From NCBI GenBank assembly GCA_027622005.1, contig JAQBZH010000001.1, positions 124,473 through 188,472 of the forward strand: a DNA stretch of 64,000 bases, given 5' to 3'. Of this stretch, positions 8,565 through 57,140 are shown in pieces. The notes beneath the pieces are model-generated. The model was given only the letters and a program-made list of their open reading frames with translations, made no database searches and was not told the DNA's origin. The translations under genes and the position numbers were made by a program. This DNA is from Bacteroidota bacterium. GTDB taxonomy: Bacteria; Bacteroidota; Rhodothermia; Rhodothermales; UBA10348. Position 1 is the stretch's first letter, and each line of letters opens with the position of its first letter.

Positions 8565-10474
8565 TCCTTCCAGATCATAGGCTTTCGGATGAAGAACTGG
8601 CCGGGATTCTATTACAAAAAGGAACCGTCTGGTTAGATGGTGCAGTAGCGAATTGGGGCAACAGCCCGCACTCCGGCGAAAACTCCCTAGGCGAAACGGG
8701 GAATTCGTATTTGTTCGAGGCACCGCTGTTTGAAGTGGTGGCCTTTTCCATCTCAGAGGTCCCTTTTGCATTCAATCAGCTGGACGAGTATCTGTCAGAG
8801 GGATATTATGTGGCTGGGTATGTTGCCTACGAAGCGGGATATGCCTTTGAAAAGGCGTCGTTTAAATCATTAGTCCAACGCGATTTCAGCGCAGAACTGA
8901 ATTATCCCCTGCTCTGGTTTGGAGTTTATAAGGAAGCAAAGGTCTTTTCGGCGACTCCGTTAGAGGGGAAGGGGCCAGAAGCGTTTATTGCAAATTTAGC
9001 CGATGCCGAGCCCCCGAGTGCATTTACTTCCTCGGTGGAGCGCATTCGGGACCTCATCGCCCAGGGCGATGTCTATCAAATTAATTTGACAACCCGATTT
9101 AAAGGTGAAATTGGCGGGGTGTCAGAAGGGCTCTTCGATGTGCTCCGTAAAAAACAACCCGTCGAATTCGGGGCATTCCTGCGAACTGGCTGGGTAGACG
9201 TCCTTTCCTTTTCTCCGGAATTGTTTTTTCGTCATGAGGGCAATCGCATTGAAGCCAGACCAATGAAAGGGACGGCGCCGCGTGGGAGCACGCAAAGAGA
9301 GGACGAGGAATTAAAAAAATGGCTGTCAGAAGACACGAAAAATCGAGCTGAAAATTTGATGATAGTCGATTTGCTCCGAAACGACCTATCGGTGGTGTGC
9401 GAGGCAGGAAGCGTTAAAGTTCCGAAGTTGTTTGAAGTCACATCGCTCCCGACCGTGCATCAGATGAGTTCGACAATCGAAGGCACTTTAAAGCCAAAAA
9501 CGGGTCTGAGCGAGCTATTTAGGGCTCTTTTTCCTTGCGGATCGATAACGGGAGCCCCAAAAATTCGGGCTATGCAACGCATTGCTGAGCTTGAACGTGA
9601 GCCCAGGGGCGTGTACTGTGGGGCGATTGGCTTTGCGGCTCCCTACGGAAGCGCGCCGTCAGAGGGTCTAGGCGCACAAATTAGTACCCGATCCGTGTTT
9701 TCCGTGGGTATTCGTACGGCGACCGTTATAAACAGAAAGCTAACCTATGGAGCTGGAGGTGGCATCGTTTGGGACTCGGATCCCGACCAGGAATATGAAG
9801 AAGCGGAACTAAAAACCCGGTTTCTTCGGTCAGCCGAAGCCCCGCCGCTGCAATTGATTGAAACGATGTTGTGGGGGGGTTGCGCGAACGGCATACAGTG
9901 GGTCGAATTCCATTTGGACCGTTTACAAGACTCAGCCACCCAATTGGGATTCGACTTTAATCGAACCACCATTAAAAATGAAATAGAGGCCTCGACAAAT
10001 CATCTCGGGCCGGGTCATTTATATCGAATCCGATTGCTTCTAGACACGGACGGCCGTATCGATATAAAACAGAAACCTTTTGAAATGCCAACGGCGCCGC
10101 TAAGAGTTGGACTCTCCAAGTCTCGAACATCTTCCAATTTTCCTCTATTTAGGCACAAAACGACCCATCGGAGCATTTATGACCGGGGGCGCCTTGAAGC
10201 AAGCGCCCAAAACGTCTTTGATGTCCTGTTTACGAACGAAAGGGGCGAAATCACGGAAGGTTCTATCACCAACGTATTTGCCTTTATAGACAATGGTTGG
10301 TACACGCCCCCTTTGACTTCGGGCTTACTTCCGGGTGTTGGTCGGCGTATTTTCATGCTCAAGCACAGCGCACGCGAAAGGATTTTAACGCCAAAAGACC
10401 TTCGATCCGCAAAAAAACTATGTCTCACCAATGCGTTGATCGGAGCCATGGAGGCTACGTGGGTGGACTTATAA
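8561..10474 (+). CDS. pabB: aminodeoxychorismate synthase component I fused to an aminodeoxychorismate lyase-like class IV aminotransferase domain
   Basis: The N-terminal ~430 aa carry chorismate-utilising motifs (GDVYQINLT, PMKGTAPRG, ENLMIVDLLRNDL, FPCGSITGAPKIRAMQRIAELE, GVYCGAIGF). The C-terminal ~200 aa carry class IV aminotransferase motifs (FRHKTTHR, EGSITNVF, LLPGVGRR). The TTG start overlaps the upstream stop by 4 nt. Confidence 0.85.
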   Translation: MILPDHRLSDEELAGILLQKGTVWLDGAVANWGNSPHSGENSLGETGNSYLFEAPLFEVVAFSISEVPFAFNQLDEYLSEGYYVAGYVAYEAGYAFEKASFKSLVQRDFSAELNYPLLWFGVYKEAKVFSATPLEGKGPEAFIANLADAEPPSAFTSSVERIRDLIAQGDVYQINLTTRFKGEIGGVSEGLFDVLRKKQPVEFGAFLRTGWVDVLSFSPELFFRHEGNRIEARPMKGTAPRGSTQREDEELKKWLSEDTKNRAENLMIVDLLRNDLSVVCEAGSVKVPKLFEVTSLPTVHQMSSTIEGTLKPKTGLSELFRALFPCGSITGAPKIRAMQRIAELEREPRGVYCGAIGFAAPYGSAPSEGLGAQISTRSVFSVGIRTATVINRKLTYGAGGGIVWDSDPDQEYEEAELKTRFLRSAEAPPLQLIETMLWGGCANGIQWVEFHLDRLQDSATQLGFDFNRTTIKNEIEASTNHLGPGHLYRIRLLLDTDGRIDIKQKPFEMPTAPLRVGLSKSRTSSNFPLFRHKTTHRSIYDRGRLEASAQNVFDVLFTNERGEITEGSITNVFAFIDNGWYTPPLTSGLLPGVGRRIFMLKHSARERILTPKDLRSAKKLCLTNALIGAMEATWVDL

Positions 10475-19812: not shown

Positions 19813-20011
19813 TACCTAAAAACGTTAAATTTCCCCGACAACTTTTAGTCTCTTAATCCGTCGAATCTACGCAAAAGATTACCTTCATCCTTTCGCAGGG
19901 GGATCAATCCATAAATTCTCCCCGTTCTGGTATGAATAGTGCCTTTGCTGCTTGATGCTTCAAAAAGTCGGAATTTTTGGCCGACGATTAATTTTTTATC
20001 AGCACGTATTT

Positions 20012-21697
20012 ATGAAATCATTTTTCAGCGTTCGTCGCCCAATGCTTTTCGGACTCGTAATCGGGGCCGCAATATTAATGGGGGTTCAGCTCGAGAGTCG
20101 CGTATTCAATGCCGACACGTCCGAAGCCATGCGGAAAATTGAGGACGTTTTTACCCTTATTAATGGACGTTACGTAGAAAAAGTAGACCCCAATGTAGTG
20201 GCTCAGAATGCGATCACGGGCATGTTGGAGAAACTAGACCCCCACAGCGTCTATTTCGATATTTCCCAGATGCAGGATGTTAATGAGCAGTTTGACGCTT
20301 CGTTCGAAGGCATTGGGATTTCATTTGAGTTGTTGCCAGGCCCCGAAGGCGCCGACACATTGGCTGTCCTAAACGTACTTCCCGGTGGTCCAAGTGAACA
20401 TGTCGGGCTTCAGTCAGGGGATCGGATCGTAAAAGTAGATGGACGTTCGACCATCGGGTACACGGATGAAGATGTCCGAAAAAACCTGAAAGGGCCGAGA
20501 GGCTCCAAAGTGACTATCACTATCCAAAGGCCAGGTGTAGTCGATCCGATTGAATTTGAAATTGTGCGTGATCAGATTCCGATTTACACGCTTGATGCCT
20601 CTTATATGCTCGAGAATGGGACGGGCTATATTCGGCTTAATCGCTTCGCCAGGACGACCTACCAGGAGTTCTTGTCAAGTCTAAGGACGTTAAAGGCTCA
20701 GGGCATGGAACGCCTTGTGCTCGATTTGAGGGGCAACTTGGGTGGCTACATGGAAATGGCTATCCGCATTTCGGATGAGTTTTTGAAGGACGGTCAGTTA
20801 ATCGTCTCTCAAAAAGGTGAAACGGACGATGCCAACGAGTCCTTTTTTGCCACCGGGTCTGGATTGTGGGAAACAGGTCCTGTAATGGTTCTGATCGACG
20901 GGGGCTCCGCTTCTGCAAGTGAAATCGTCGCTGGGGCTTTACAGGATCACGACCGAGCACTCATTGTCGGGCGTCGCTCTTTCGGAAAGGGCCTGGTTCA
21001 AAAACAATATTTGCTTCGGGACGGCAGCGCTCTCAGGCTCACTGTAGCGAGATATTATACTCCGTCGGGTCGCTTAATTCAGACTAATTATGAAGAAGGA
21101 GATAAACTTGACTACTATGCTGGCAAAGCGCAGCGTAGAAAGGAGGACGGTACCAAGAGCTCAACGGAGCTTTTGGAGGGCATTGCGGACTCGTTAAAAT
21201 ATCGTACAGACTCCGGACGAGTGGTCATTGCGGGTGGGGGAATTATTCCGGACTACGTGGTTTCTCCAGATTCATTATCTCCGTTACTACAGGCGGTGAT
21301 CAACCGTAGTGTTGAAAACTTATTCATTCGATCCTGGGTCGATTTATACGGAGCCAGCCTAAAGACGAAGTGGGGGGATACTCAAGATAAATTCGTCGAT
21401 GAATTCGACGTATCGCCGGCTATGTTGGAAGCCTTTTGGGCATATGCTGCTCAAAAAGGCGTAATTGTAGGAGATCGCGCCACTGAATCAACCTCGCCGT
21501 TACGATTCTCAGTTGGAGAATCTCAGTCGGATGCATTGAATATTAAAGCGCTATTAAAAGGTCGATTGGCCGTCCGTTTATATGATCGAAGCGCCTGGTA
21601 CCCCGTCTGGTCTGATGTCGATCATTTGTTAATCGAGGCTAACATGCTCTGGAATCCCGCAGAAGATTTAGCCATACATTACTCGGAAGCTAGATAG
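20012..21697 (+). CDS. ctp: S41 family carboxyl-terminal processing peptidase
   Basis: It has a PDZ domain (PGGPSEHVGLQSGDRIVKVDG) and S41 catalytic blocks (DLRGNLGG, GGSASASEI, RRSFGKGLVQ). The track ORF starts at 19952. The ATG at 20012 gives a signal-like MKSFFSVRRPMLFGLVIGAAIL. Confidence 0.9.
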   Translation: MKSFFSVRRPMLFGLVIGAAILMGVQLESRVFNADTSEAMRKIEDVFTLINGRYVEKVDPNVVAQNAITGMLEKLDPHSVYFDISQMQDVNEQFDASFEGIGISFELLPGPEGADTLAVLNVLPGGPSEHVGLQSGDRIVKVDGRSTIGYTDEDVRKNLKGPRGSKVTITIQRPGVVDPIEFEIVRDQIPIYTLDASYMLENGTGYIRLNRFARTTYQEFLSSLRTLKAQGMERLVLDLRGNLGGYMEMAIRISDEFLKDGQLIVSQKGETDDANESFFATGSGLWETGPVMVLIDGGSASASEIVAGALQDHDRALIVGRRSFGKGLVQKQYLLRDGSALRLTVARYYTPSGRLIQTNYEEGDKLDYYAGKAQRRKEDGTKSSTELLEGIADSLKYRTDSGRVVIAGGGIIPDYVVSPDSLSPLLQAVINRSVENLFIRSWVDLYGASLKTKWGDTQDKFVDEFDVSPAMLEAFWAYAAQKGVIVGDRATESTSPLRFSVGESQSDALNIKALLKGRLAVRLYDRSAWYPVWSDVDHLLIEANMLWNPAEDLAIHYSEAR

Positions 21698-39625: not shown

Positions 39626-42600
39626 ATGCGAGCTCGTATTCATCTATTAGCTCTTTCCATTCTTTTTTTGTTTCCCTTGGTGACGAAGGGACAGAGCGTC
39701 CGAACCGAAACTTCCGACTTTCTTGATGGACGCATCCAAGTCGATTATTATTTCGATTGGACCATCTCGTTGGCTGAATTTGTGGACTCATCAAGCGTTG
39801 TCCTATGGAATGAATCGGTGGTTGATCAGGCAACAGGTGGGTTTTTAAATGCCTCGACTACCATTACACTACCCGCTCTAACCCATCCAATGGTTCGCGT
39901 TGTGGAGCGACAATACGATGAGCGCGAGGTCCAGATAGCGGAGTCAGGTAGCCCAGCAGAAATCCGTGAGGTTTGGCATGCCGGACTTGGGATGTTCCAG
40001 AAAAAGCCTGTTACAGATATTGTCGTACCCGTTTTTCAAATTGATCGCTCCCAGGGTGTTTTGCGTCGCTTTAGGCACATTCGCGTCGAAGTTACCCCTG
40101 GCATCCTCAACTCGGATGCGTCAGAGCCGGCCGCCACTGCTTTGAATAGCGGACGTGCCCTTAAAAGTGGGTCAGTCATTAATAGCGCCTTATCGACCGG
40201 GCAAATATTTAGAATATCGATAGCTTCGGCAGGCATTTACCGCGTAAATCGCGCTTTTTTAATAGCTCTCGGGCTCAATCCAGATGCGATCGATCCCAAC
40301 TCGATTGAAATATTAGGAAATGGAGGAAGGCCACTTTTAGCGCTTAACGCCATCAACCGAATTTCAGATTTGAGTTCAATTCCCGTGGGGCGTACCGGTG
40401 GAGGAGATGGTAATTTTGGATCTGCGGACGAAATTATCTTTTACGCGAGTGGGCCATCGGGATGGACGTATAAGGGAGGTAAGTTTGAACACTTCATCCA
40501 CCCCTATTCCAACGACAACGCCGTATTTCTGAAAATCGGAGCTGGTTCTGGCCCCTCTCAGGCCATCCGGACTTATTCGCCGGGCGCCTCAATGCCGATA
40601 TTTTCGTCTACAACAGGACGCTATTTTCTAGATGTTGAAGAACGGGTTTGGAGTAGGGAGCACGGAAGCGGAATCGACTGGATGAGCAATACGATTCGTT
40701 CCGGAGGTAGTAGAGATTTTTTATCAGGTCTCGTTTTGCCAGGTTTGATGGCCGGGACCATCGACTATGAAACACGGGTAGCGATTGCTTCCAACCCGAG
40801 GGCTACGGTCGCCATGTTGTCGGGCAGCGCGACATTGGCACAACGAACGGCGCCGCTTGCAACGACTCAAAACGCGGAAGATGCCTCGGCATCTGAAACG
40901 ACCTTTTCCTTTCAACAGTCAGTAACAAGTGGGCAGCCTATAAATTTAACCATGCGGCTATTGAATCAATCCAATGAACCTGAAGCGTCGCTGGATTGGA
41001 TTCGAATTACATTCTCTCAAGCGCTTATCAGGGCGGGCGGGCCTCTTTATTTTACCTCTCGACCGGGTTTGAGTGGAGCACAATCCTATGAATTGAGTGG
41101 CTTTGCAGAACTACCCAAAGTGTGGGATATTACCGACGGCCAATATTCCGCTTCTTATGATGTTGGCAGCGTTTCGGGGAACCACATCATTCAACTTTCT
41201 TCGGATGATGTATTAATCCGCCCAAGAGATCTGGTGGCCTTTGTAACGGCCGACATCCAAAATTTAGTCGCGTCCCAGTCGACCCCTGCCCCAAATCAAG
41301 ATCTGCACGGTATAGCGGGATTTCCGGACATGGTTATTGTCGCTCCCGAGGCTTTCATGCCTGCCGCGGAGCGGTTGGCTGACCATCGTCGGAAGGAGAA
41401 TTTAGATGTCATTATCGTGTCTCCGACACAAATTTACAACGAGTTTTCGGGAGGTGTGCCCGATATGCGGGCCGTTCGCGACTACATGCGGTTTTTATAC
41501 TTCCGGGCGCCACAAAACGAACTCCCTCGATATTTATTGTTGATGGGTGATGGACACTACGACTTTCGCGGCAAATCAACGGTAACAAAACCGTTACTCA
41601 ATCACATTTTTCCATACGAAACGGAGGAGTCCCTGTATACCGACGGGACTTTTACTTCGGATGATTATTTTGGCCTTTTGGACACCAACGAGGGTGTTTG
41701 GACCTACACCTCGTTTACGCATCAATCTTCGGAACGGGTGGATATCGGTATTGGTCGGTTCCCGGTGCAGACTTTGGCCGAAGCCGAGGTCATGGTCAGT
41801 AAAATCATGTCTTACGAAGACCCCTCCACGTTTGGATCCTGGCGAACGCAGTACACCGCTGTCGCTGACGACGGCCCAACGGGACTTTCGGGCACTCAAA
41901 ACGACAACGATTTGCATCTGGCCAACGTGGATCAAGTGGTCGAATTAGTTGCGCGGGATTTGTATCCCCAAATCAACCTGAAAAAAATATATGCCGAGAC
42001 CTTCGAACGAGTGTTTTTGAACGGTTTTCGGATTCCGGATGCCAAGCGCGAATTCAGTGCTGCGTTAAACCGGGGGACGCTAATTTTGAATTATAGCGGA
42101 CATGGCGGCCCCGATGGTCTGGCTCAGGAAGAGATTTTTACCAAAGAAGACGCGCTTGCGTTAACCAATAAGGACAAATTGGCGGTTTTCATCACGGCGA
42201 CCTGTTCGTTTGGGTGGTGGGATTTACAGGAATCCCAAAGCGGGGCGGAACTGCTTTTACTCAATCCAAACGGTGGCGCTGTGGCCATGCTAACTACGGT
42301 TAGATTAGTGTACACATCGGGTTCAGTTGAATCGTTAAATGCCGGGCTGAATCGATCGTTGAACATTGCGATGTTCAAGACTGACGCTGACGGCTTGCCG
42401 CGGCGCCTTGGAGATGCGCTGCTCGAAACCAAAAACACGGCCGTAGGGCTTCAGGGCAACAGCCGAAAATTCAATTTATTGGGCGATCCATCGATGCGCA
42501 TCGGTCTGCCTTCAGGAAACGCTGTGGTTTCGCAGCTAAATCAAACGCCTTTGGCCACGCAAACCGGTCAAATGAAAGCGCTCGACCTCGTAACCATTAC

Positions 42601-43618
42601 CGGCGAGATCCAGAACACGAATGGTTCGACGAACGCCGCCTTTAACGGAAAGGTAGACGTTACCGTATTTGATGCTGAGCGAAACGTGCCGCTAATCGTT
42701 CGTTTTTACAATCCGACTACTTATTTCCGGCAGCGAGAAGATCTATTGTGGCGGGGCACAGTCCAGGCGGTTAGCGGCAAGTTTAACGCAGAATTTGTCG
42801 TGCCGAAGGATATCAGCTATTCCAACCAACGCGGACGCATTGCCGTTTATGCCCAGGCTCTTGATTTTCAGGCTCTCGGCTATTCGGAAAATTTTATCGT
42901 GGGTGGGACCTCCTTAAATCCACCCAATGATAATGATGGACCTCAAATTAGATTGTTTCTCAATGATTCGACCTTTGTGGCAGGTAAAACGGTCGATTCA
43001 AATCCGGAATTAATCGTCAAATTGTTTGATTCTTCGGGAATAAACACCGTCGGTACTGGTGTTGGCCATGAGATGCTGTTGTCCCTCGATGGAAACGATA
43101 GTGCGGCGGAGGATATTGGAAGCGCATTCGTTGCTGAAGCCAATTCGTTTCAGCGTGGAGAGGTTCGATGGCCGCTTAATGATCTGGAGCCGGGTTCCCA
43201 CTCCCTCAGTGTCCGAGCGTGGGACGTATTAAATAACTCAAATACGACCGAGATTTCATTTAATGTCGCAAATGATGAGGTATTGAACGTACTTAATGTG
43301 TACAACTATCCGAACCCTATGAATCGGGAAACCCGATTCGTGTTCGAACATAATCAGCCCCAAGGGACTTCTGCGGAGGTCCAAATTCGCATTTATACGC
43401 TTAGCGGACGACCGATACGAACGATACATTCGGATGAAGCGCTTCCTGAAGGAATTCTGGGAAGTGGACCCATTCAGGTCTACTGGGATGGAAAAGATGA
43501 TGATCTTGACCGTCCTGCAACCGGAATCTATCTGTATCGTTTGAGGGTCGTGACCCACGGCTCGAACGGAGACCGACAGGTTAGCGAGCACATCGAAAAA
43601 ATAGCTATCATTCGATAG
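39626..43618 (+). CDS. porU: type IX secretion system sortase PorU (C25 gingipain-like peptidase)
   Basis: 1330 aa with a signal peptide. The C25 region includes FPDMVIVAPEAFMPAAERLADHRR, YLLLMGDGHYDFRG, the clan-CD His (NYSGHGGPDG) and Cys (FITATCSFGWW). The C-terminal T9SS CTD reads YNYPNPMNRETRFVFE...GIYLYRLRV. Confidence 0.9.
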   Translation: MRARIHLLALSILFLFPLVTKGQSVRTETSDFLDGRIQVDYYFDWTISLAEFVDSSSVVLWNESVVDQATGGFLNASTTITLPALTHPMVRVVERQYDEREVQIAESGSPAEIREVWHAGLGMFQKKPVTDIVVPVFQIDRSQGVLRRFRHIRVEVTPGILNSDASEPAATALNSGRALKSGSVINSALSTGQIFRISIASAGIYRVNRAFLIALGLNPDAIDPNSIEILGNGGRPLLALNAINRISDLSSIPVGRTGGGDGNFGSADEIIFYASGPSGWTYKGGKFEHFIHPYSNDNAVFLKIGAGSGPSQAIRTYSPGASMPIFSSTTGRYFLDVEERVWSREHGSGIDWMSNTIRSGGSRDFLSGLVLPGLMAGTIDYETRVAIASNPRATVAMLSGSATLAQRTAPLATTQNAEDASASETTFSFQQSVTSGQPINLTMRLLNQSNEPEASLDWIRITFSQALIRAGGPLYFTSRPGLSGAQSYELSGFAELPKVWDITDGQYSASYDVGSVSGNHIIQLSSDDVLIRPRDLVAFVTADIQNLVASQSTPAPNQDLHGIAGFPDMVIVAPEAFMPAAERLADHRRKENLDVIIVSPTQIYNEFSGGVPDMRAVRDYMRFLYFRAPQNELPRYLLLMGDGHYDFRGKSTVTKPLLNHIFPYETEESLYTDGTFTSDDYFGLLDTNEGVWTYTSFTHQSSERVDIGIGRFPVQTLAEAEVMVSKIMSYEDPSTFGSWRTQYTAVADDGPTGLSGTQNDNDLHLANVDQVVELVARDLYPQINLKKIYAETFERVFLNGFRIPDAKREFSAALNRGTLILNYSGHGGPDGLAQEEIFTKEDALALTNKDKLAVFITATCSFGWWDLQESQSGAELLLLNPNGGAVAMLTTVRLVYTSGSVESLNAGLNRSLNIAMFKTDADGLPRRLGDALLETKNTAVGLQGNSRKFNLLGDPSMRIGLPSGNAVVSQLNQTPLATQTGQMKALDLVTITGEIQNTNGSTNAAFNGKVDVTVFDAERNVPLIVRFYNPTTYFRQREDLLWRGTVQAVSGKFNAEFVVPKDISYSNQRGRIAVYAQALDFQALGYSENFIVGGTSLNPPNDNDGPQIRLFLNDSTFVAGKTVDSNPELIVKLFDSSGINTVGTGVGHEMLLSLDGNDSAAEDIGSAFVAEANSFQRGEVRWPLNDLEPGSHSLSVRAWDVLNNSNTTEISFNVANDEVLNVLNVYNYPNPMNRETRFVFEHNQPQGTSAEVQIRIYTLSGRPIRTIHSDEALPEGILGSGPIQVYWDGKDDDLDRPATGIYLYRLRVVTHGSNGDRQVSEHIEKIAIIR

Positions 43619-43864
43619 TTTTTGACCGATACTACTGTAACATCAAGACGTAACAAAGATTTTATTGACAGAACGGATACTAGAACACGTTTTTTTCAAT
43701 CATTGTAACGGCGGAAAAGCCAGACCTGACGATTTACCTGTTAAGGTAGTTGGCTTTCCATTAAATTGAGTGCTTACAGAATGTACGTAGTGAACAGACA
43801 CGACGAATTGACGCTTGTCAACCATAACCTGAAGTCAGGTAGAATCCAGATTTTTAAGCAAACC

Positions 43865-44998
43865 ATGCATCCTATTTCGCGAATCGCGTTCTTTTTGTTC
43901 GTAGCGGCAATGCTGCTACCAACTGTAGCTTCTGCCCAGGTCGGGGGCTCTGCGGTAGTGTTCCTGAAAATTGAACCAGATAGCCGGGCTTCCGGAATGG
44001 GAAATGCAGGCGTTGCATTGGCAGATAATGCAAGTGCCATCTTCTGGAATCCGGCCGGTTTAGCTTTTCAAACAGGAACGGAAGCTGCCATTACACACTC
44101 AACGTGGCTCCCAGAGTTTAAAGCAGACTTGTTTTACGAGTATTTGATTGCTAAGCATCACGTTCCAGGTTGGGGTACGTTCGGTGCACATTTGACTTAT
44201 TTGTTTCTAGGTCAGCACGAGGGACGCGACGCACAAAACAACCCAACCGGTACATTTCGTTCTTACGATTTGGCTACAGGAATTTCCTACGGCGTAAAAT
44301 TGAATGAACGCTTTGGTGTAGGTACGAGCCTTCGCTTCATTTATTCCAATCTGGCTCCAGGCCAAACCGTTGGCGCACAGGAAACGAAAGCTGGTGTGTC
44401 CACCGCTTTCGATATCGCCGCATTATACCGTACGCGAAAGTTCGCGATGGGAGAGACCATGAAAGGGGAGTTTTCAGCTGGCTTTAACCTGGCCAACATG
44501 GGCAACAAGATTCAATACTCCGACAATGCTCAAGCAGACCCGATTCCAACCAATGTGCGCTTCGGTTATGCGTTCAAGATGGAATTCGACGAATTTAACA
44601 GCCTAACGTTAGTTACAGACTTTAATAAAGACCTAATCCACTATTCAGACTCCTCTTCGGCGGCTGACCCGTTCTATAAAGCGATTTTCACCTCGTGGGC
44701 GCCCGTGAAAGTTCGAACCAATGCACTTGCTGATGACGAAGCTCAGTACAAATCTCTCGGCGTTCTAAGCCAATTGACCATCGGAACGGGGTTTGAGTAT
44801 TGGTACAACAATTTGTTTGCCCTTCGTGGCGGGTATTTTTACGAAAACCCCAACAACGGTAATAGAAAGTACATGACACTCGGTGCTGGTGTTCGAATGA
44901 GCATTATCGGGATTGATTTTTCGTACATCTATGCCGAACAAAACTCCCCGCTTGCCAACACCATGCGCTTTTCGATGATCGTAAATTTCGAGAAGTAA
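43865..44998 (+). CDS. porV: type IX secretion system outer-membrane shuttle protein PorV (LptO)
   Basis: It has a signal peptide (MHPISRIAFFLFVAAMLLPTVASAQ) and the PorV/PorQ-family block FLKIEPDSRASGMGNAGVALADNASAIFWNPAGLAF. It is beta-barrel-like and ends in an aromatic-rich strand. The track ORF starts at 43766. Confidence 0.9.
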   Translation: MHPISRIAFFLFVAAMLLPTVASAQVGGSAVVFLKIEPDSRASGMGNAGVALADNASAIFWNPAGLAFQTGTEAAITHSTWLPEFKADLFYEYLIAKHHVPGWGTFGAHLTYLFLGQHEGRDAQNNPTGTFRSYDLATGISYGVKLNERFGVGTSLRFIYSNLAPGQTVGAQETKAGVSTAFDIAALYRTRKFAMGETMKGEFSAGFNLANMGNKIQYSDNAQADPIPTNVRFGYAFKMEFDEFNSLTLVTDFNKDLIHYSDSSSAADPFYKAIFTSWAPVKVRTNALADDEAQYKSLGVLSQLTIGTGFEYWYNNLFALRGGYFYENPNNGNRKYMTLGAGVRMSIIGIDFSYIYAEQNSPLANTMRFSMIVNFEK

Positions 44999-45084: not shown

Positions 45085-48000
45085 ATGGCTCTCTTTTCCC
45101 CGCCTTCAGGTGGGCCAAAACCGTTTTGGATTGAATTATCACGGCTTTTGAAAGGCGTGACTTTAATAACGAGACGATTGATTATTCCGGATACCCTGTC
45201 TAAAAAATTCGGATATATTTTAGCCATTCTGCCCTTCATAGGCCTTACGCCAATGGCATGGAGCCAGCAGCGAATTGCACCCGAAGTGGTCAATGTGGTG
45301 GCTTTGATGGTGGAGTTTCAGCCCGATTCATCGCGATTTACAACAGGAAATGGGACGTTTGATGGGCCCCTGTTTAAAGGAGTCGAAGCTCCCCGGTTAG
45401 ATCCGCTTCCGCACGATGATTCGTATTTCAGCGCTCATCTGCGGTTTTTGGAGCATTACATCGCCAAAGTATCGGACGGTCGAACTGAAGTAAAAAGCTT
45501 TGTACTGCCCCATATCATCCGAGTCTCTCATGAAATGGGTTATTACAGTCCTACGGGCAAGGAGGCCGGTGGTGATCCAGAGTTATCGAAATTGGCTCGA
45601 ATGGTAAAAGAGGCTTGGACGGCTGCGGAATCCCAAAACGTTCAACTTCCGCCTGGAATTACTTCCTCAAACACGGCCTTTGTCCTGTTTCACGCTGGAG
45701 TTGGACGAGATATCGAGCTTTTAGGGACAACACTCGATAAAACCCCGGAAGATTTACCATCGCTGTACTTAGGCTCTGAGACCTTATCCCGTTTGGGAGC
45801 TGGTTCATTGATCGTTGATGGGGTTTCTGTCACTAACACGATGGTTATTCCTCGAACGGAATCCCGTTTAGGATTCGATTTCATTGCAGAGAAGCCATTT
45901 CTCATTGAGTTGTCGATCAATGGATTATTAGCGGCGAGCTTTTTGAATTATCTCGGGGTGCCTGATTTATTCAATTCACAAACAGGTGAAAGCGCCATTG
46001 GTCCATTCGACGTTATGGACGCTCTCGGTATTTTTGCATTTGGTGGTCTATTTCCACCTGAGCCCAGCGCTTGGACCAAACAGTTCGTCGGTTGGGCCGA
46101 AGTCAACACTTTTCAGGATGCAACCCTTAAATCGATCTCCCTTCGACACAGCGGTGATGCTAGTCGGAATGAGGTTGCCAAGGTCCCAATTTCTGACTCC
46201 GAATACTTTCTACTTGAAAACAGGCATCGTGACCCGGAAAATGACGGAATTCGGATGCAAGTGTGGAAGGATGGTGTGACTTCAGAAGTCGTGTTTCCCA
46301 ACGCGGATCCGAAATTTAACGATGTTACTATATCCGGATTCGAAGGGGGCGTTGTAGTTGCGGTGGATCAATACGATTTCGCTTTACCAGGAGGCGAGGA
46401 TGAGTTCGGAAACCCTCTTGTCGGAGGAATACTGATTTGGCATATTGACGAAAACCGAATTCGTGAGGGGATTTTGACCAACCGGGTCAACGCGGATCCA
46501 GCCAGCAGAGGCATTGATCTTGAAGAGGCGGATAGTGGGCAGGACATCGGATTTAGTTCTAATGGCGGTCTCTTTGGCCCACGATTCGATCTAGGATCTC
46601 CGTTTGATTTCTGGTTTCAGTCAAATCCGGTAAAGATTCGAACCACATCAGGCCGTGAAATCGCGCTCTATGAAAACAGGTTTGCGACCGACACCTTTCC
46701 GTCAAGTCATGGAAATAACGGTACGTCCAGTTCAATTTCGATTTCAAATATTTCTGATCCGGGGCCAGAAATGACCTTCATATTGGATCAAAACGATTCG
46801 TCCATTTGGAAGTCTGAAAGTCAGCAAATGGTGTCTTTTCCGTCGGGCCCAATTTCTGGGGAGTCCACGTTGGGATTGTTGCCATCGACTTCCAGCGAAC
46901 CTAATCCATTCGTGTTCGGAGGTGTCCAAGGGCGAGATAGCGGCCTTTGGACTGCTCAGACGCCGTATCGTGGTGTCGAAGCTATTCGGCCGATTACAGG
47001 TCCCTTCGGACTGATTGCAGTACAAAATGATGCGTTGGTGTGGATAGACGCTTCCGGCCTACTTCGGAGCGCCTCTTTCGGGGCGACGGGGGGATCCGGT
47101 CGCCCCACGTCCAACTTGGCCTGGTATGCGGAAGGATCACAATACCATGTACGGCTTGGGGTTATGTTACCCAGTGGCCCGGTAATGGCCCACGGAATAA
47201 TCGGACCCAACCAGTCCTTTACCGTTTCCTTAGAGACCGTTTCCGCACCCGTAAAACGCATCGTTCAGCGTTCTCGGAGCACGGCTACTGCCTTCATATT
47301 GATTGGGAACGAGTTGTTGGATGAAGCCACCGGAAGAAAGATTGATTTAGAATTGCCCGTAATTGCGGGTAACGACCTTTCCACGGCATTTTCGTTTGAT
47401 GTTGGACTTGATCGGGATGGTTGGATGGTGGCGTATACGAACCCAGTGACTTCAACCCTTCAAATCGTGCATGAATCAGGAGAAAGATTCACGACTTCGT
47501 TTTCAGCCTGTGTTCCTGGCCATCCCGTTTTTGCCGACTTGAGTTTAGATGCCAGAGGAGATGTTTTGGTTAGTTGCGGGGATGAGCTTTTTGGATTTCA
47601 TGCCAACGGCGTCTTGATGGGCGGTTTTCCATTTAAATTGAAAGGCGCGGCCACCTCGGAGCCAATTTTTGTTGAGCAGTCTGGCTCAAGTCTAAAATAT
47701 GCCATGGTTCAAACGGATCTTGGAAACTTGGATGGATTCGCTCTAGGGCAAAGTTTACAGCGCATAGAAGGATTTCCGCTTTCGATTGGAAGTCCCTCAG
47801 AAACGGCGCCGTTCGTTTGGGATAATCACATTCTGACGCTTTCCGGAAATGGGACCTTAAAAACGTGGTCGACCATCGCCGGGGCAAGCCTTTCATCCAG
47901 AAATATTGTGGGACGGGACTTGGCGTATGTAATGATCAACACTCCTCCGGACAAAACCGTCTCCGGAACGCTCCTGACGCAATCAGAAACGTACAATTGG

Positions 48001-48258
48001 CCGAATCCGATTTCCGAAGGTCGAACTCACATTCGATTTATGACCACCGAAGCGTCAGAAGTAGTTGTAACGATTGTGGATACGACCGGGCAATTGGTAG
48101 AAAAATTCGAATCGGTTTCCACCATTGGGGGCCTTCCTGCGGAGATCATGTGGACCACCGGGGCGCAAAGTGGGGTGTATATCGCCCGGGTTCAGGCTCG
48201 TGCAGTCGGTGGGAGTAAGAGCGATACCCGTCTAATTAAAATGGCCATTGTTCGATGA
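45085..48258 (+). CDS. secreted M6 (immune inhibitor A)-like domain protein lacking HExxH, with beta-propeller-like repeats and a T9SS C-terminal domain
   Basis: 1057-aa ORF. A TTG at 45178 gives a signal-like start. It has M6-like blocks (VVALMVEFQPD, FVLFHAGVGRD, LNYLGVPDLF...GPFDVMD). Repeated G-FP motifs occur in the C-terminal half. The CTD reads YNWPNPISEGRTHIRF...GVYIARVQA. Confidence 0.7.
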   Translation: MALFSPPSGGPKPFWIELSRLLKGVTLITRRLIIPDTLSKKFGYILAILPFIGLTPMAWSQQRIAPEVVNVVALMVEFQPDSSRFTTGNGTFDGPLFKGVEAPRLDPLPHDDSYFSAHLRFLEHYIAKVSDGRTEVKSFVLPHIIRVSHEMGYYSPTGKEAGGDPELSKLARMVKEAWTAAESQNVQLPPGITSSNTAFVLFHAGVGRDIELLGTTLDKTPEDLPSLYLGSETLSRLGAGSLIVDGVSVTNTMVIPRTESRLGFDFIAEKPFLIELSINGLLAASFLNYLGVPDLFNSQTGESAIGPFDVMDALGIFAFGGLFPPEPSAWTKQFVGWAEVNTFQDATLKSISLRHSGDASRNEVAKVPISDSEYFLLENRHRDPENDGIRMQVWKDGVTSEVVFPNADPKFNDVTISGFEGGVVVAVDQYDFALPGGEDEFGNPLVGGILIWHIDENRIREGILTNRVNADPASRGIDLEEADSGQDIGFSSNGGLFGPRFDLGSPFDFWFQSNPVKIRTTSGREIALYENRFATDTFPSSHGNNGTSSSISISNISDPGPEMTFILDQNDSSIWKSESQQMVSFPSGPISGESTLGLLPSTSSEPNPFVFGGVQGRDSGLWTAQTPYRGVEAIRPITGPFGLIAVQNDALVWIDASGLLRSASFGATGGSGRPTSNLAWYAEGSQYHVRLGVMLPSGPVMAHGIIGPNQSFTVSLETVSAPVKRIVQRSRSTATAFILIGNELLDEATGRKIDLELPVIAGNDLSTAFSFDVGLDRDGWMVAYTNPVTSTLQIVHESGERFTTSFSACVPGHPVFADLSLDARGDVLVSCGDELFGFHANGVLMGGFPFKLKGAATSEPIFVEQSGSSLKYAMVQTDLGNLDGFALGQSLQRIEGFPLSIGSPSETAPFVWDNHILTLSGNGTLKTWSTIAGASLSSRNIVGRDLAYVMINTPPDKTVSGTLLTQSETYNWPNPISEGRTHIRFMTTEASEVVVTIVDTTGQLVEKFESVSTIGGLPAEIMWTTGAQSGVYIARVQARAVGGSKSDTRLIKMAIVR

Positions 48259-51200
48259 GAAATCAGTTCCGAAATATGCTGGTTTTTCTCGTGATGGGTA
48301 GCGCTTGGTTTTCCGAAGCCACCGCTCAGGAATCCCTCGCGTGGTACGATTACGTTCGTAGCGACCTCAAGTGGTATACGATCGAAACGGAGCACTTTTT
48401 AGTCCATTTCCATTCGGATGAGACGGGCGAAGGAAGTCGAACAGCGCGTGTGGTTTCCGAAATCGCAGAAGACATGTACGGCCCCATCACGGATCTATAT
48501 GATTTTGAGATGGACCAAAAAGTCTCTTTTGTTTTAAAGGACTATGAGGACTACTCCAACGGGGCAGCCTACTTTTTCGATAATATCATTGAAATTTGGG
48601 CGCCTGCCCTCAATACTCCTTTTCGCGGCGACCATAATTGGCTCAGGAACGTGATTTCTCATGAGTTCACGCATATGGTTCAGGTGCAAAAGACCATGAA
48701 AACCACGCGTAAGCTGCCTTTCATGTACCTGCAGTTTTTGAATTATGAAAAGGTTACTCGGCCCGATGTGTTGTACGGTTTTCCAAACGTATTGGCATCG
48801 TACCCCATTCCGATTCTAAACAATCCGGCTTGGCTAGCGGAAGGAAGTGCTCAATATCAACGAGCATCCTCTGACTATGACCGGTGGGATTCGCATCGAG
48901 ATATGATGCTTCGAACCCAGATTTTGGCAGGTGAAGAACTCACCCTCGCTGAGATGGGTGGTTTTTACTCCCACACGAGTCTGATGAGGGAATCCGTGTA
49001 TAATCATGGATTCGCCTTCAGTCTATACCTCGCCAATCGATTTGGCGAAGATGGGCTTAGAACGTTAAGCGCCGAACTTGGGAAGTGGTCTAACTGGAAT
49101 TTTGAGCAAGCCGCTTTTGACGCTTTTGGTATTCGCGGCGAAGATATTTACACCGAATGGATTACCAGTCTAAGGGCCTTTTACTCCGAAAATGCGCCCC
49201 CAGGAACGGATTCCGAGGTTAAATACATTGAGCGTGATGGGTTTAACAATTTTTACGCCCGCGTATCTCGCGACGGATCAAAAGTAGCTTACATCTCCAA
49301 TAAGGGAGAAGATTTTAGTTCAACCGGGATCTGGATCCACTCCCTGACAGAGGAAAATGGTTCTCCGAAAATGACAGATGTGCATGGATCGGCCGGAATC
49401 AGTCCTTCGAACGCGCGTTTGATCTTATCGGGCGAAGAGCTAGGGTTCGGATCCGATTATACTTGTTCGCTCGGGCACAAATTGCTATCGGCCGTTTCGG
49501 GGCCAATCGATTGGATTTCCAATACAAAACTGGTGTATTCAAAGTCAAAAGACACGCCCGAAGGGTATTTGTATTTGGATTTGTGGTCCTATGACATTGA
49601 AACAGAGGAAAAAGTACAACTTACTCGCAACGCCCGGGCTTCGTCCCCATCCGTCTCAAAGGACGGTTCGTTTATCGCATTCGTGACCCAATATGACGGT
49701 ACTACCAATCTGCAATTGCTAGATGTCGCGTCTGGTGAAACGAAGGCGTTAACCAATTTCGTCGATGGCTCGCAGGTTACGGAGCCCGTTTTCGACCATT
49801 CCGATGAGTGGATTTATTTTGGACTCAGCATCGGCCATGGCAGGGATATTTATCGGGTGAATCGGAATACGAAGTCCATTGAACCAGTCATGGCAGAGGT
49901 TTGGGATGATCGGTCGCCGGCGTTCGATCAAGCCGGAAATATGGTTTTTTCATCCGATAGAAGCGGAATTTTCAATTTGTATCGACGGGAGTCTTCTGGT
50001 GAGATCGTGCAACTTACCGTCGAGCAGGGTGGCGCATTTATGCCGTCGTTTGGCCCGGATGGTAATATCGTATACAGCCGATATGAAGCCTCGGGATATA
50101 AAATAGCGGCAATCAAACCCGAGGTGCGCGAAACATCGCCGAGTTATCAAACGCCGCCGTTTCTAGCTAAAACTGCGTCGAAAGGGGATATATCTGCTTT
50201 TGAGCAAGCATTAAATAGCGCCGATGACGCCGCCATCAGAACGTTTTCGGCAGCGGAGATGGAGTCTGTTAAAGCTTACCGTCCGGTATTTACATCGGTA
50301 AGCTTTTTGCCGGTGCTGCGCCTCGACCAGTATGTTTCTAGGAAGCGCAGCCGAACTGATGTTCGGTTAAAAGATCGAACTCGAGCGGAAACCTTGTGGC
50401 GGAATACCAAGGTTGGAATGTATGCAAGCACGCGTGAAGTACTCGGCGGATTCACCTTTTTTGGCGGCCTGTTGCTTGGACCTGGATCAGGAAACGCAAA
50501 ATCACTTCTCGATGGATTGTCGCCTTCAAACCTGCTCGATTTGGAGCGCGATGCCATTCTGCAGGTAGATTACGCCAAGGGACTTCCTTTCATCCATAAA
50601 AGATGGTCACCTCAGTTTTCGGCTCAACTTTTTAACATCCGTCGAAACGTCGAAAACGGACTCGCAATCGAGGAATTTCCATGTACGGCCTGTTACCCAG
50701 ATTCGACCCTTGCTGATCTAGCTTACGATCTGTGGGAAGTGGACTTTACCGCAAAAAGCAAGATCAACCGGGTCTTGCTGGCGCAAGTTGGCTATCGCTA
50801 CAGCCCTTATCGAGTAACTACCAAGCGATTCTTTTCGGAGGAATTGAAGCAAGCCATTCCGGCCAGTTCGTCTAAATACTATATCGGACGGGCGTTCCAC
50901 GCTAGTCTCATTTTTGAATCCTTTCACCCTTATCGGGACATGAACGTAGTTCCCACGGGTATTCGCGCTGAACTCAGTTACGAACGAGAGTCAGGGCGGT
51001 TATTAGAAGCATTTAGCATCCGTGATGGCCTATTAACGCCTCTGTACGCCAACGCCACCGTCAACCGCATATCATTTGATGTCAAGGGAGGTCTCCGATT
51101 GCCCGGCTGGCCAGGGGAAGGAGCTCACGGACTTGGCCTACGCCTGAGGACGACCGCCATCATCGGCAGAGAAGTCGATGACTTCTATAACGACTATGTC

Positions 51201-51614
51201 GGAGGATTGGTCGGAGCCCGGGGATATGCTTTTTATGCCCTCGGAGGTAATGAAACCGTTTGGGCCCAGATCAGCTATTCGTTTCCCGTGTTTCCTCGTG
51301 TCTCAAAGCAATTCTTATTTACTTACGTTGATAAAATCTACTTGAAAGTATACGCGGATGCCGCTACGGCTTGGTCAGGTGATTTTCCTGGACTCGGCAG
51401 CTTGAAGAAGGACGTCGGGGTTGAAGCGCGATTCGGACTTGGTTCTTTTTATTTGTTGCCCGCCGCTTTTTTCATTAGTAGCACGTACGGATTGGATTCG
51501 TTTAATTTTCAGCTAGACGAGGGATTTGTTACCCCGGATGGAAGTTCAACCATTCGATATGGCGGCACATGGCAGTGGCACGTAGGGCTACTTTTTGGTT
51601 TTGATCAATTATAG
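48255..51614 (+). CDS. large secreted multidomain protein: MA-clan HExxH peptidase-like N-domain, PD40/TolB-type beta-propeller repeats and a C-terminal barrel-like domain
   Basis: 1119 aa with a signal peptide. It has HEFTH (48660-48674) plus a downstream NPAWLAEGSAQY (Peptidase_MA_2-like). PD40-like repeats include SRDGSKVAYISN, SKDGSFIAFVTQYDGTTNLQLLD, FSSDRSGIFNLY and FGPDGNIVYSRY. The C-terminal third is beta-rich. Its ATG overlaps the upstream stop (ATGA). Confidence 0.7.
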   Translation: MRNQFRNMLVFLVMGSAWFSEATAQESLAWYDYVRSDLKWYTIETEHFLVHFHSDETGEGSRTARVVSEIAEDMYGPITDLYDFEMDQKVSFVLKDYEDYSNGAAYFFDNIIEIWAPALNTPFRGDHNWLRNVISHEFTHMVQVQKTMKTTRKLPFMYLQFLNYEKVTRPDVLYGFPNVLASYPIPILNNPAWLAEGSAQYQRASSDYDRWDSHRDMMLRTQILAGEELTLAEMGGFYSHTSLMRESVYNHGFAFSLYLANRFGEDGLRTLSAELGKWSNWNFEQAAFDAFGIRGEDIYTEWITSLRAFYSENAPPGTDSEVKYIERDGFNNFYARVSRDGSKVAYISNKGEDFSSTGIWIHSLTEENGSPKMTDVHGSAGISPSNARLILSGEELGFGSDYTCSLGHKLLSAVSGPIDWISNTKLVYSKSKDTPEGYLYLDLWSYDIETEEKVQLTRNARASSPSVSKDGSFIAFVTQYDGTTNLQLLDVASGETKALTNFVDGSQVTEPVFDHSDEWIYFGLSIGHGRDIYRVNRNTKSIEPVMAEVWDDRSPAFDQAGNMVFSSDRSGIFNLYRRESSGEIVQLTVEQGGAFMPSFGPDGNIVYSRYEASGYKIAAIKPEVRETSPSYQTPPFLAKTASKGDISAFEQALNSADDAAIRTFSAAEMESVKAYRPVFTSVSFLPVLRLDQYVSRKRSRTDVRLKDRTRAETLWRNTKVGMYASTREVLGGFTFFGGLLLGPGSGNAKSLLDGLSPSNLLDLERDAILQVDYAKGLPFIHKRWSPQFSAQLFNIRRNVENGLAIEEFPCTACYPDSTLADLAYDLWEVDFTAKSKINRVLLAQVGYRYSPYRVTTKRFFSEELKQAIPASSSKYYIGRAFHASLIFESFHPYRDMNVVPTGIRAELSYERESGRLLEAFSIRDGLLTPLYANATVNRISFDVKGGLRLPGWPGEGAHGLGLRLRTTAIIGREVDDFYNDYVGGLVGARGYAFYALGGNETVWAQISYSFPVFPRVSKQFLFTYVDKIYLKVYADAATAWSGDFPGLGSLKKDVGVEARFGLGSFYLLPAAFFISSTYGLDSFNFQLDEGFVTPDGSSTIRYGGTWQWHVGLLFGFDQL

Positions 51615-51619
51615 ATCGG

Positions 51620-52297
51620 GTGAATATGGACGCATCGATGATTTTTGGTTTGGGAGCGGTCATGATTGCCGTTGGACTGATTTTTCTTTGGATGCTTTTC
51701 AAAGACAACGACACCAAACGGCCTAGAGACATCGTTGAGTGGGTCGGAACGGTATTATCAACCCTTTTGATCATTTCAGCAGTGGCTTTGATGGCCCTCG
51801 CGAAATCATCCGAAAAAGTGGTAGTAAACGGTGGGCAAGTGGCAACGGAAGACGCTTTCCAGGATGCCATCATTGAAGTGCCTGCTTCCAATTTTTCTTT
51901 TAAAACTGTAAATCAGGATATCACGCAAAATCTGGATGATTTTAAAGGAAAGGTGGTCATTCTCAACTTCTGGGCGACATGGTGCGGGCCTTGTCTGAAA
52001 GAGATTCCTGATCTGAATCAGCTACAAAAGGAGTTTGGCGATCAAGGCCTCGTGGTTTTATCGGTTTCTGACGAAGAAAGAAGCTTACTTTTGTCGTTTG
52101 AAAATCAGCTCGAGTTGAATACAGAAAGCGTTTACGTGCCGCTTAATATTGATTTGCCGATGCCATTTACGGGTGCATTTTCTATTCGGCCAGCTTCTTT
52201 CATCATCGACAGAATGGGTATCGTTAGGCGGTATTTGCTGGGCGCTCGGAATTACGATTTCTTTAAAAAGGCAATCGAACCCTTAATGGAAGGATAA
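51620..52297 (+). CDS. TlpA-family thiol:disulfide oxidoreductase (membrane-anchored thioredoxin)
   Basis: 225 aa with N-terminal TM segments and a thioredoxin motif (NFWATWCGPCLKEIP). Confidence 0.85.
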   Translation: MNMDASMIFGLGAVMIAVGLIFLWMLFKDNDTKRPRDIVEWVGTVLSTLLIISAVALMALAKSSEKVVVNGGQVATEDAFQDAIIEVPASNFSFKTVNQDITQNLDDFKGKVVILNFWATWCGPCLKEIPDLNQLQKEFGDQGLVVLSVSDEERSLLLSFENQLELNTESVYVPLNIDLPMPFTGAFSIRPASFIIDRMGIVRRYLLGARNYDFFKKAIEPLMEG

Positions 52298-53319
52298 TGA
52301 TACGATTAACGACGCTTTTAGCAGGCCTATGCGTCTGTGCTGCGACTTCCGTAGCTCAACCGGTTGAAGGCCTGGTCGCTGTCGAGAGAGCGAAAGCCTT
52401 GGGGCTTGTCGGGTTTGACGCGTTTGTTGATCTCCGCTCTGAAATATTACATCCGTCGAGATACCAAACGATTTCCTACAGAGCTGATTTTCAGGATTTA
52501 GCGGCCGGAAGTCGAAGTGTCCCATTGGCTTTTGGACTTTCCGCGATCCTTCCGGGCGCCGGACAATTTTACAACAGACAATACGTCAAGGCGGGAGTAG
52601 CAGTCGCCCTTGAGGCAGCCGTGATTACCGGGTATTCCATACTGCGAACGCGAGGAACGGGCGCGGAGGATGCTTTTCAAGCCACCGCACATCAATCCTG
52701 GAGTCCCGTTAAGTATGCCAGTTGGTTAAATGACTACGCAACCTACCTGAACGAAGAAAGGGGTGGAAATATCACCGCCCCCTTGGTTCAATTGCCATCA
52801 TCAATCGATTTTACCCAGCCTGGAAGTTGGTCTTCTTCCGAAAGAGCAGCCGTAAACGCCATGTTTACGCAGATACGGGCTGTAGAACGACAAGTATTCC
52901 ATCCTGAAACAGGAGCGGCGTTCTCGCACCAAATTCCCGATTTTGCCGCGCAACAATACTATGAGCTGATTGGCAAATATTTTCAATTTGCACCGGGTTG
53001 GGAGGACTATTCCGATTGGAAAAATGCCCAGGGGGAATTTACGGTTGCCATAGACCCTGAACACACAGGCAGCGGCGGCTCAAAGCCCAACGTTTCGGTT
53101 TCCTTCTACCGGTATGCGGGGGATCATGCGGATGCACAGGACACCTTGCGTGAAGCAAGTAGAATATCCCTTTTGTTTGTATTTAACCACCTTTTGGCTG
53201 CTATTGATGCCGCAGTCAGCTCAAAATTGCACAATGACCGACTGGATACAAGTCTCGGCTTATCCTATGACGGTCCCGGACGCCCTACGCCGGTTGCGCG
53301 TCTTCAATTCTCTTTTTAA
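52297..53319 (+). CDS. DUF5683-domain protein
   Basis: 340 aa with a signal peptide. The DUF5683-type block is LSAILPGAGQFYNRQYVKAGVAVALE. Its ATG overlaps the upstream TAA by 1 nt. Confidence 0.65.
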   Translation: MIRLTTLLAGLCVCAATSVAQPVEGLVAVERAKALGLVGFDAFVDLRSEILHPSRYQTISYRADFQDLAAGSRSVPLAFGLSAILPGAGQFYNRQYVKAGVAVALEAAVITGYSILRTRGTGAEDAFQATAHQSWSPVKYASWLNDYATYLNEERGGNITAPLVQLPSSIDFTQPGSWSSSERAAVNAMFTQIRAVERQVFHPETGAAFSHQIPDFAAQQYYELIGKYFQFAPGWEDYSDWKNAQGEFTVAIDPEHTGSGGSKPNVSVSFYRYAGDHADAQDTLREASRISLLFVFNHLLAAIDAAVSSKLHNDRLDTSLGLSYDGPGRPTPVARLQFSF

Positions 53320-56198: not shown

Positions 56199-57140
56199 GT
56201 GCCCGAATCTCAACAGCTGCCTGAATTCGAATTGGATGGTCGCTTCGAACGAACCTCTGCCCGTCCACTAGCATATGGATTTTTAGGCCTTCTGGCGGCT
56301 TTTATCCTGTTTCAAGGGATCAGCACCGTCGTTACACTTGTATTTCTTCTCAGCGCCAACGTCTCGTTGACCGATCTGCTCGGTAATATGGAGCAGGTTT
56401 TGACCGACCATGCTGCTTCCATTTTGATTGCCAATACTATTGGTCAATTTTTTGGTCTACTGATACCTGCGCTCCTGATAACGCGATTCCATTCGTCTAA
56501 TTGGAAGTCTTATTTGCGTTTACGCAGTGTCGATGGAAAAATTCTAGCCTTGTCCATTGTCGCGCTTTTTGCTCTTATTCCTGTGGTTCAGTGGTTTGGA
56601 GTGATTAGCGACGGCCTGCCCTGGCCCGATTCGATTCGCAGTTTTGAAAAGTCCCAGATGGATTTGATTGAGCGGATTCTGACGCAGGATTTTTCTCTGC
56701 TGTTTACCATCTCCATGTTGGCGCTTACACCCGCTATTTGCGAAGAAATCCTTTTTCGGGGATACTTCCAGCGCCAAGCCGAACGGAGTCAGGGCATATT
56801 ATGGGGTATTCTCCTATCTGGGATCGTTTTTGGTTTGTACCACATGCGTTTAACGCAAGCCATCCCCCTTTCCATGTTGGGCGTTTTTATGGCCTATTTG
56901 ACCTGGCGAACCAATAGTATTCTGCCAGCCATGTTGGTTCATCTCGCCAATAACTCGTTTGCGGCCATTTTAGGTAAGTTTGCTTCAAAGGACGGGTCCA
57001 CGATTGACCTTGAGACCTTTGAAATACCCCTAACTATTGTCATTCCAGCCGCTCTTTTATTGGCCGGCGTTTTGATACTTCTGCATAGACTATCTGCAGC
57101 CGAGGCTGGCTCCGAAATAATAGAGCCGACAGACACTTAG
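56199..57140 (+). CDS. CPBP-family intramembrane glutamic endopeptidase (CAAX protease-like)
   Basis: 313 aa, polytopic, with CPBP motifs (ICEEILFRGY, FGLYH, VHLANN). Confidence 0.85.
   Translation: MPESQQLPEFELDGRFERTSARPLAYGFLGLLAAFILFQGISTVVTLVFLLSANVSLTDLLGNMEQVLTDHAASILIANTIGQFFGLLIPALLITRFHSSNWKSYLRLRSVDGKILALSIVALFALIPVVQWFGVISDGLPWPDSIRSFEKSQMDLIERILTQDFSLLFTISMLALTPAICEEILFRGYFQRQAERSQGILWGILLSGIVFGLYHMRLTQAIPLSMLGVFMAYLTWRTNSILPAMLVHLANNSFAAILGKFASKDGSTIDLETFEIPLTIVIPAALLLAGVLILLHRLSAAEAGSEIIEPTDT

Follow-up and report, generated by a model that had tools for sequence, protein, structure and literature searches.

To our knowledge, the secretion system of type IX (T9SS) has been elucidated almost wholly in Porphyromonas and Flavobacterium, and how the other phyla of the Fibrobacterota–Chlorobiota–Bacteroidota (FCB) group process and anchor their cargo is largely uncharted. 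PorZ, a surface protein of this system, consists of two seven-bladed beta-propellers followed by a C-terminal domain (CTD). It binds PorQ and delivers anionic lipopolysaccharide (A-LPS) to PorU, in a set of proteins that pair as PorQ–PorZ and PorV–PorU (PMC12365241). On the side of the proteases, the metzincins are characterized by the motif HExxHxxG/NxxH/D, the third ligand being an Asp in the thuringilysins (InhA family) (PMC12237041). Here we analyze a gene, hereafter the target, that lies directly downstream from porV in a 64,000-nucleotide stretch (the window) of contig JAQBZH010000001.1 from a Bacteroidota metagenome-assembled genome (MAG). A first examination of the letters alone (the original prediction) had described its product as a catalytically dead M6 (InhA)-like scaffold with a beta-propeller and a T9SS CTD, recalling PorZ. 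The analysis below upholds this description, apart from homology with PorZ, and the fixed position of the gene beside porU and porV suggests that its product has an unstudied role in the T9SS machinery.

The target protein almost certainly belongs to the NCBIfam family NF052323.1, "T9SS-dependent M6-like inactivated metalloprotease" (short name T9SSA_dep_M6i). Indeed, it scored 743 bits (E 5.8e-223) in a profile search, above the equivalog cut-off of 600 bits that applies to the whole protein, and it contains both an M6-like domain without HExxH and a type A CTD. It shares its architecture, its dead site and its CTD with the family, without any structural difference. The orthologue from Rhodohalobacter halophilus (RefSeq WP_069130331.1) already bears the family name, and the GenBank label of the target is the generic "T9SS type A sorting domain-containing protein". 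A dead M6 protease with a T9SS CTD is therefore already known, as NCBI curates the family; what is new here is the synteny with porV and porU, the occurrence of an active family in the same slot in Krumholzibacteriota, and the downstream HEFTH gene that overlaps the target by ATGA. A literature search turned up no paper describing NF052323 and no published function for it (the strings "PorU2" and "PorV2" that surfaced are artefacts of superscript reference numbers, not proteins).

All the M6-like blocks quoted in the original prediction are present in the protein, namely VVALMVEFQPD (aa 71–81), FVLFHAGVGRD (aa 199–209), AASFLNYLGVPDLF (aa 283–296), GPFDVMD (aa 306–312) and FVGW (aa 334–337). 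For the third block, which corresponds to the degenerate zinc motif, the predicted end was right but the start lies 6 nt further downstream (nt 45931–45972 instead of 45925–45972). No HExxH motif occurs anywhere in the target protein. No active enzyme appears among the relatives listed either: the best 150 matches of a search against 1.84 billion representative proteins were all from the dead family, with no active comparator among them. Active comparators were fetched from metagenomes, as 118 open reading frames (ORFs) containing HE[FY]GHxLGLPD, a motif that was absent in two scans of viral contigs. Eight comparator ORFs were confirmed as M6 proteins, all eight passing PF05547 and seven of them TIGR03296; comparator L098 scored 80.3 bits on TIGR03296, below the cut-off of 110.8 bits.

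A profile of the N-terminal domain (aa 60–580, 120 homologues) recovered genuine HE[FY]GH M6 proteins at 40–110 bits. The HMMER alignment, which is ungapped in this region, places G-l-l-a-A-S-F-L-N-y-L-G-v-P-D-l-f under G-V-F-C-H-E-F-G-H-N-L-G-L-P-D-L-Y, so that A284-S285-F286-L287-N288 falls on H-E-F-G-H: A284 stands for the first His, S285 for the Glu and N288 for the second His, with G291 as the turn Gly and D294 as the third ligand. The hAG, LM(D) and WHxD/EADG motifs, together with the active-site helix, the Gly turn and the ligand Asp, align with active M6 domains, and M311 is probably the Met-turn methionine, as judged from its place in the alignment. As expected for an active-site helix, NGLLAASFLNY (aa 279–289) was modelled as a helix. 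These data show that the M6 domain of the target is devoid of both zinc His and of the catalytic Glu, as originally predicted, and that it retains the Gly turn, the Asp of the third ligand and the probable Met of the Met-turn, on a fold that appears to be kept. Compared with M6 peptidases (InhA/thuringilysins; PF05547, TIGR03296), the target thus has a homologous catalytic-domain scaffold from which HExxH has been lost; it also lacks the MAM and VEG domains of InhA, in the place of which it carries a propeller and a T9SS CTD.

The C-terminal half, which had been suspected to be a beta-propeller, is indeed modelled as one. In the AlphaFold2 (AF2) model of the full-length protein (predicted local distance difference test score, pLDDT, 80.3; predicted template-modelling score, pTM, 0.77), 32 strands form eight four-stranded blades, and the best matches retrieved from the Protein Data Bank (PDB) by Foldseek were BamB structures (E ~1e-9), the propeller dominating the ranking. 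FG-GAP_3 (PF13517) is recorded for homologues P0056 and P0096, as well as for the active sister family described below. The type A CTD announced at the C-terminus was recognized by TIGR04183 (25.9 bits for a cut-off of 23, aa 972–1052); PF18962 gave 23.6 bits (E 6e-5), below its cut-off of 27.

The loss of the zinc site is a property of the whole family, which comprises 463 clusters (50% identity level, E<=1e-30) and is found in Rhodothermales, Balneolales, Ignavibacteria and Melioribacteraceae. HExxH was found nowhere in 260 family proteins, including 50%-identity representatives, nor in 80 species-representative loci, which answers the question of whether orthologues share the loss. In the 260 proteins, the five site positions read [AS][SNTQ][FIV][FLGA][NS]. 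Among the 120 closest homologues, A283, A284, S285, F286 and N288 are each kept in 116–118 proteins and D294 in all 120. The divergence of the N-terminal domain is about as slow as that of PorV and slower than that of PorU. By contrast, the propeller half evolves fast, many homologues aligning at 55–59% identity over only ~48% of the query. Because the remodelled cleft is so strongly conserved, a ligand-binding function has probably been retained.

The genomic position of the target is equally constant. Synteny was recorded in 80 related loci, one genome per species (out of at least 480 species matches), the denominators given here being the testable loci. The adjacency to porV noted in the original prediction holds in every case (73/73), porU precedes porV in 60 of 65 loci, a gene of the type found directly downstream from the target (encoding a 1119-aa protein) follows the dead M6 gene in 59 of 63, and a DUF5683 gene is found further downstream in 51 of 54. 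These loci span Rhodothermales, Balneolales and Ignavibacteria, which shows that the linkage of the dead M6 gene to porV and porU is very old and tight. In the window, the stop of the target and the start of the downstream gene overlap as ATGA, and the next two junctions of the cassette consist of a 5-nt gap and a 1-nt overlap. Scans for promoters and terminators between 39000 and 54000 gave hits at chance level and were uninformative on the limits of the operon.

An M6 family that retains the zinc motif occupies the same slot in another lineage. The members of this sister family (P0261–P0380, ~1200 aa each, mostly from Candidatus Krumholzibacteriota) are labelled "immune inhibitor A" or "M6 family metalloprotease-like" in the source records. 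They have the architecture of the dead family (PF05547, FG-GAP and T9SS CTD), with which they align over the full length (hhalign probability 100%, E 7.7e-55, 918 columns). HEFGH is kept in 119 of the 120 members, and the stretch that leads from the conserved Gly to HEFGH is longer by four residues. The best active relative, encoded in locus L098 (10562–14011), directly follows porU (469 bits on NF033707) and a gene of the PorV family, and the sister gene comes after porU–porV in the four loci examined (L098, L201, L202 and L203; it is located at 10001 onward in the last three).

The Krumholzibacteriota-type cassettes also contain a DUF5683 gene (e.g. L201 14632–15483), and the proteins encoded downstream in them are a 326-aa protein, the DUF5683 protein, an NHL-repeat protein, an unannotated ~1160-aa protein and an Omp85 protein. 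A profile of the 1119-aa-type downstream protein, in which HExxH is combined with a TolB propeller and a putative barrel, found no homologue within 10 kb at the four loci. Thus, the Krumholzibacteriota family shares architecture and slot with the target but differs from it by HEFGH, by the four extra residues and by the absence of an HExxH-TolB-barrel neighbour. The resulting pattern, i.e. an M6 domain that is alive without a neighbouring HExxH protein and dead with one, is suggestive, albeit drawn from a small sample (4 loci versus 59). Separately, two active M6 proteins from metagenomes (L129 99–2177 and L186 206–2464, the latter on the minus strand) end in CFI-box-CTERM (NF041770), indicating that M6 domains have been joined to several different surface-sorting signals.

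Because porV, porU, the HExxH gene and the DUF5683 gene accompany the target so regularly, and because of the ATGA overlap, we favour the view that the target is a surface pseudo-protease exported by Sec and the T9SS that assists the PorU/PorV module as a dedicated partner, binding a ligand without catalysis (rough probability 55%). We infer that its function as a PorV/PorU partner is to bind and not to cleave. The protein, with its signal peptide, M6 metzincin domain, propeller and type A CTD, would reach the cell surface via Sec and the T9SS, where it would serve the PorV/PorU carrier–sortase module as a dedicated partner instead of being random cargo. There, the preserved substrate cleft and the propeller would hold a ligand without cutting it, most plausibly a cargo segment (the CTD-adjoining linker or the cleaved CTD) or an anchor molecule. 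Any cleavage would be carried out by PorU and/or by the HExxH-TolB-barrel protein encoded by the overlapping downstream gene. The protein probably descends from an active M6 protease that occupied the same genomic slot, as is still the case in Krumholzibacteriota.

Several observations weigh against this reading. The original prediction looked to TIGR03296 and the Pfam model to reveal the M6 domain, and on this point they fall short: PF05547 (Peptidase_M6) did not match the target at E<=1, and TIGR03296 gave 43.2 bits (E 4e-11, aa 290–382, i.e. beginning just past the zinc site), below its cut-off. The target displays neither the zinc motif nor the model scores of an active M6 peptidase. Sequence searches of the PDB with the single protein, the full-length profile or a profile of aa 190–470 retrieved neither InhA nor any other protease. 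With the isolated N-terminal domain (AF2 model with pLDDT 81.5 and pTM 0.87), Foldseek returned no significant PDB match; the best one was the ADAMTS-1 metzincin catalytic domain (E 0.06), InhA not being among the matches. A kinship to InhA or to PorZ thus finds no support in the comparison of structures. Furthermore, hhalign places a four-column gap at "YHEF" of the closest active family instead of a straight substitution, so that the residue-for-residue replacement is not unique; under either alignment, neither the two His nor the Glu is left. In five Balneolales loci (L022, L029, L030 of Rhodohalobacter halophilus, L031 and L033), no adjoining porU was detected upstream from porV, although porV still stands together with the dead M6 gene, the downstream gene and the DUF5683 gene, which means that the tightest linkage is to porV and not to porU. 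Finally, synteny alone cannot tell a component of the machinery from an abundant co-expressed cargo, and ordinary cargo, too, bears a CTD, the NCBI name "T9SS-dependent" itself treating the target as a substrate.

This last point leads to the main rival, which we consider less probable, albeit to be taken seriously. The target could be an ordinary T9SS cargo, that is, a surface-displayed pseudo-protease/propeller protein that serves as an adhesin or binds external ligands without any role in secretion, its adjacency to porV resulting from the co-transcription of highly expressed surface proteins. In addition to the CTD and the curated name, the fast evolution of the propeller half fits such a protein, as it is expected of a surface that faces the environment. 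However, an invariable adjacency to porV across phylum-level distances would be unusual for a cargo, Krumholzibacteriota fill the same slot, and the N-terminal domain is conserved to about the level of PorV.

The preferred reading, that of a dedicated partner of PorV/PorU, can be extended to the neighbouring genes, although we regard this extension as unlikely. The dead M6 protein, the downstream HExxH-TolB-(Omp85-like) outer-membrane protein and the DUF5683 protein would constitute a hitherto unrecognised, lineage-specific T9SS surface module of Rhodothermota, Balneolales and Ignavibacteriota that is attached to PorV/PorU in the place taken by PorZ/PorQ in Porphyromonas. Proteolysis, at first the task of the M6 protein as it would still be in Krumholzibacteriota, would have been passed to the HExxH neighbour, the M6 protein being kept as a substrate-holding pseudoenzyme.

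PorZ itself (P. gingivalis PG1604, PDB 5M11, NF052228) is likewise a surface T9SS protein with propeller and CTD that is functionally tied to PorU/PorV (PMC12365241), and by analogy a PorZ-like accessory role is possible for the target. Homology with PorZ is not supported, as no similarity was detected beyond the CTD and the architecture differs: NF052228 did not match the target at E<=1, the family profile touched only the CTD of 5m11 (E 0.74), and 5m11 was not among the 50 best Foldseek matches of the full-length model. PorZ has no protease-like domain, whereas in the target a pseudo-M6 domain is followed by a single eight-bladed propeller and then by a CTD; similarly, PorZ pairs with PorQ, whereas no PorQ-like gene was found in the cassette of the target. 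We therefore hold it improbable that the target is a strict functional analogue of PorZ, i.e. that it binds an anionic glycolipid or another anchor, presents it to PorU for transpeptidation and replaces PorZ (perhaps also PorQ) in Rhodothermota and Ignavibacteriota. The combination of propeller, CTD and linkage to attachment-module genes, as in PorZ, and the published role and pairing of the Por proteins would agree with it. Its weak points are the lack of homology, the single eight-bladed propeller versus two seven-bladed ones, the absence of a PorQ-like second barrel from the cassette, and the Krumholzibacteriota orthologue, which looks like an active protease and hence fits poorly with pure lipid delivery.

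That the target is still an enzyme, with other conserved residues (e.g. H203, H381, H453, E275, E480/E481 and D294) binding a metal or catalyzing a different reaction, is very improbable: many invariant acidic and His residues do surround the domain, and D294 and M311 are retained, but active M6 proteins endowed with HExxH conserve H203 (hAG) and H453 (WHxD) as well, so that both are structural there, H381 is replaced by Y or N in some family members, and neither HExxH nor an inverted motif exists in the 260 members.

The features of the cassette are listed in the table. The annotated ATG of the target probably over-extends the gene, the true start lying 21–31 codons downstream, at a TTG or GTG at codons 22–32, which would place it just ahead of the signal peptide. 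With this signal peptide, identified by reading the sequence only, the CTD and the adjoining porU and porV, the target has the attributes of a T9SS type A cargo or component.

Features of the target gene and of its porU–porV cassette (window coordinates)
Feature	Position	Strand	Remarks
porU (C25-type T9SS sortase)	39626..43618	+	First gene of the cassette; NF033707 971 bits (cut-off 420); PF01364
porV	43766..44998	+	Directly upstream from the target; NF033710 288 bits (cut-off 250); PF19572
Target ORF	45085..48258	+	1057 aa; NF052323 member; GenBank MDA1027588.1; true start probably 45148–45178
Probable Sec signal peptide KKFGYILAILPFIGLTPMAWS	45202..45261	+	~aa 40–59; read by eye from the sequence; homologue alignments start near here
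M6 (thuringilysin/InhA-type metzincin)-like domain	45271..46824	+	aa 63–580; best stretch on NF052323; includes FHAGVGRD, GGILIWHIDE and DLEEADSGQDIGF
Degenerate zinc site on the active-site helix, NGLLAASFLNYLGVPDLF	45919..45972	+	aa 279–296; A284/S285/N288 replace His/Glu/His; G291 and D294 kept
GPFDVMD	46000..46020	+	M311 invariant in GPFxxMD; aligns with LM(D/A) of active M6
Eight-bladed beta-propeller	46807..47904	+	~aa 575–940; 32 predicted strands (AF2); GFP/FG-GAP-like repeats
T9SS type A C-terminal sorting domain	47998..48255	+	aa 972–1057; beta-sandwich in the model
1119-aa gene	48255..51614	+	Start overlaps the target stop; intact HEFTH (MA-clan peptidase-like), TolB/PD40 propeller, possible Omp85-like C-terminal barrel
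ResA/TlpA-like thiol-disulfide oxidoreductase	51620..52297	+	Variable member between the HEFTH gene and DUF5683; present in 14/54 loci
DUF5683 protein	52297..53319	+	PF18935 37.4 bits (cut-off 26.7); conserved cassette member

The downstream 1119-aa protein is named by no curated family. Its NWLRNVI[ST]HEFTHM motif is highly conserved, HExxH being present in 56 of 58 orthologues, and its C-terminal domain (~480 aa) may be an Omp85-like barrel, as suggested by weak matches to the Omp85 superfamily in 3 of 14 orthologues. The DUF5683 protein may be another unrecognised T9SS-linked component, since its gene belongs to nearly all of the cassettes in which it could be looked for and to the porU–porV–M6 cassette of Krumholzibacteriota. 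Two further protease-related genes of the window, encoding a CPBP-family intramembrane glutamic protease homologue (56199–57140, plus strand) and an S41 C-terminal processing peptidase (19952–21697, plus strand), have no evident link to the cassette.

The interest of the target lies in the cassette and in the pair of active and dead sister families, and not in the finding of a dead protease. If it proves to be nothing more than a conserved cargo, the outcome would be an ordinary one, namely a correctly recognized member of a family named by NCBI. On the other hand, a pseudo-protease whose gene is linked to porV in every testable genome of three lineages, and whose counterpart in a fourth lineage has an intact active site, is a concrete candidate for a T9SS component, specific to these lineages, that has so far been missing, and the active and dead families together constitute a natural system for asking what a pseudo-metzincin does.

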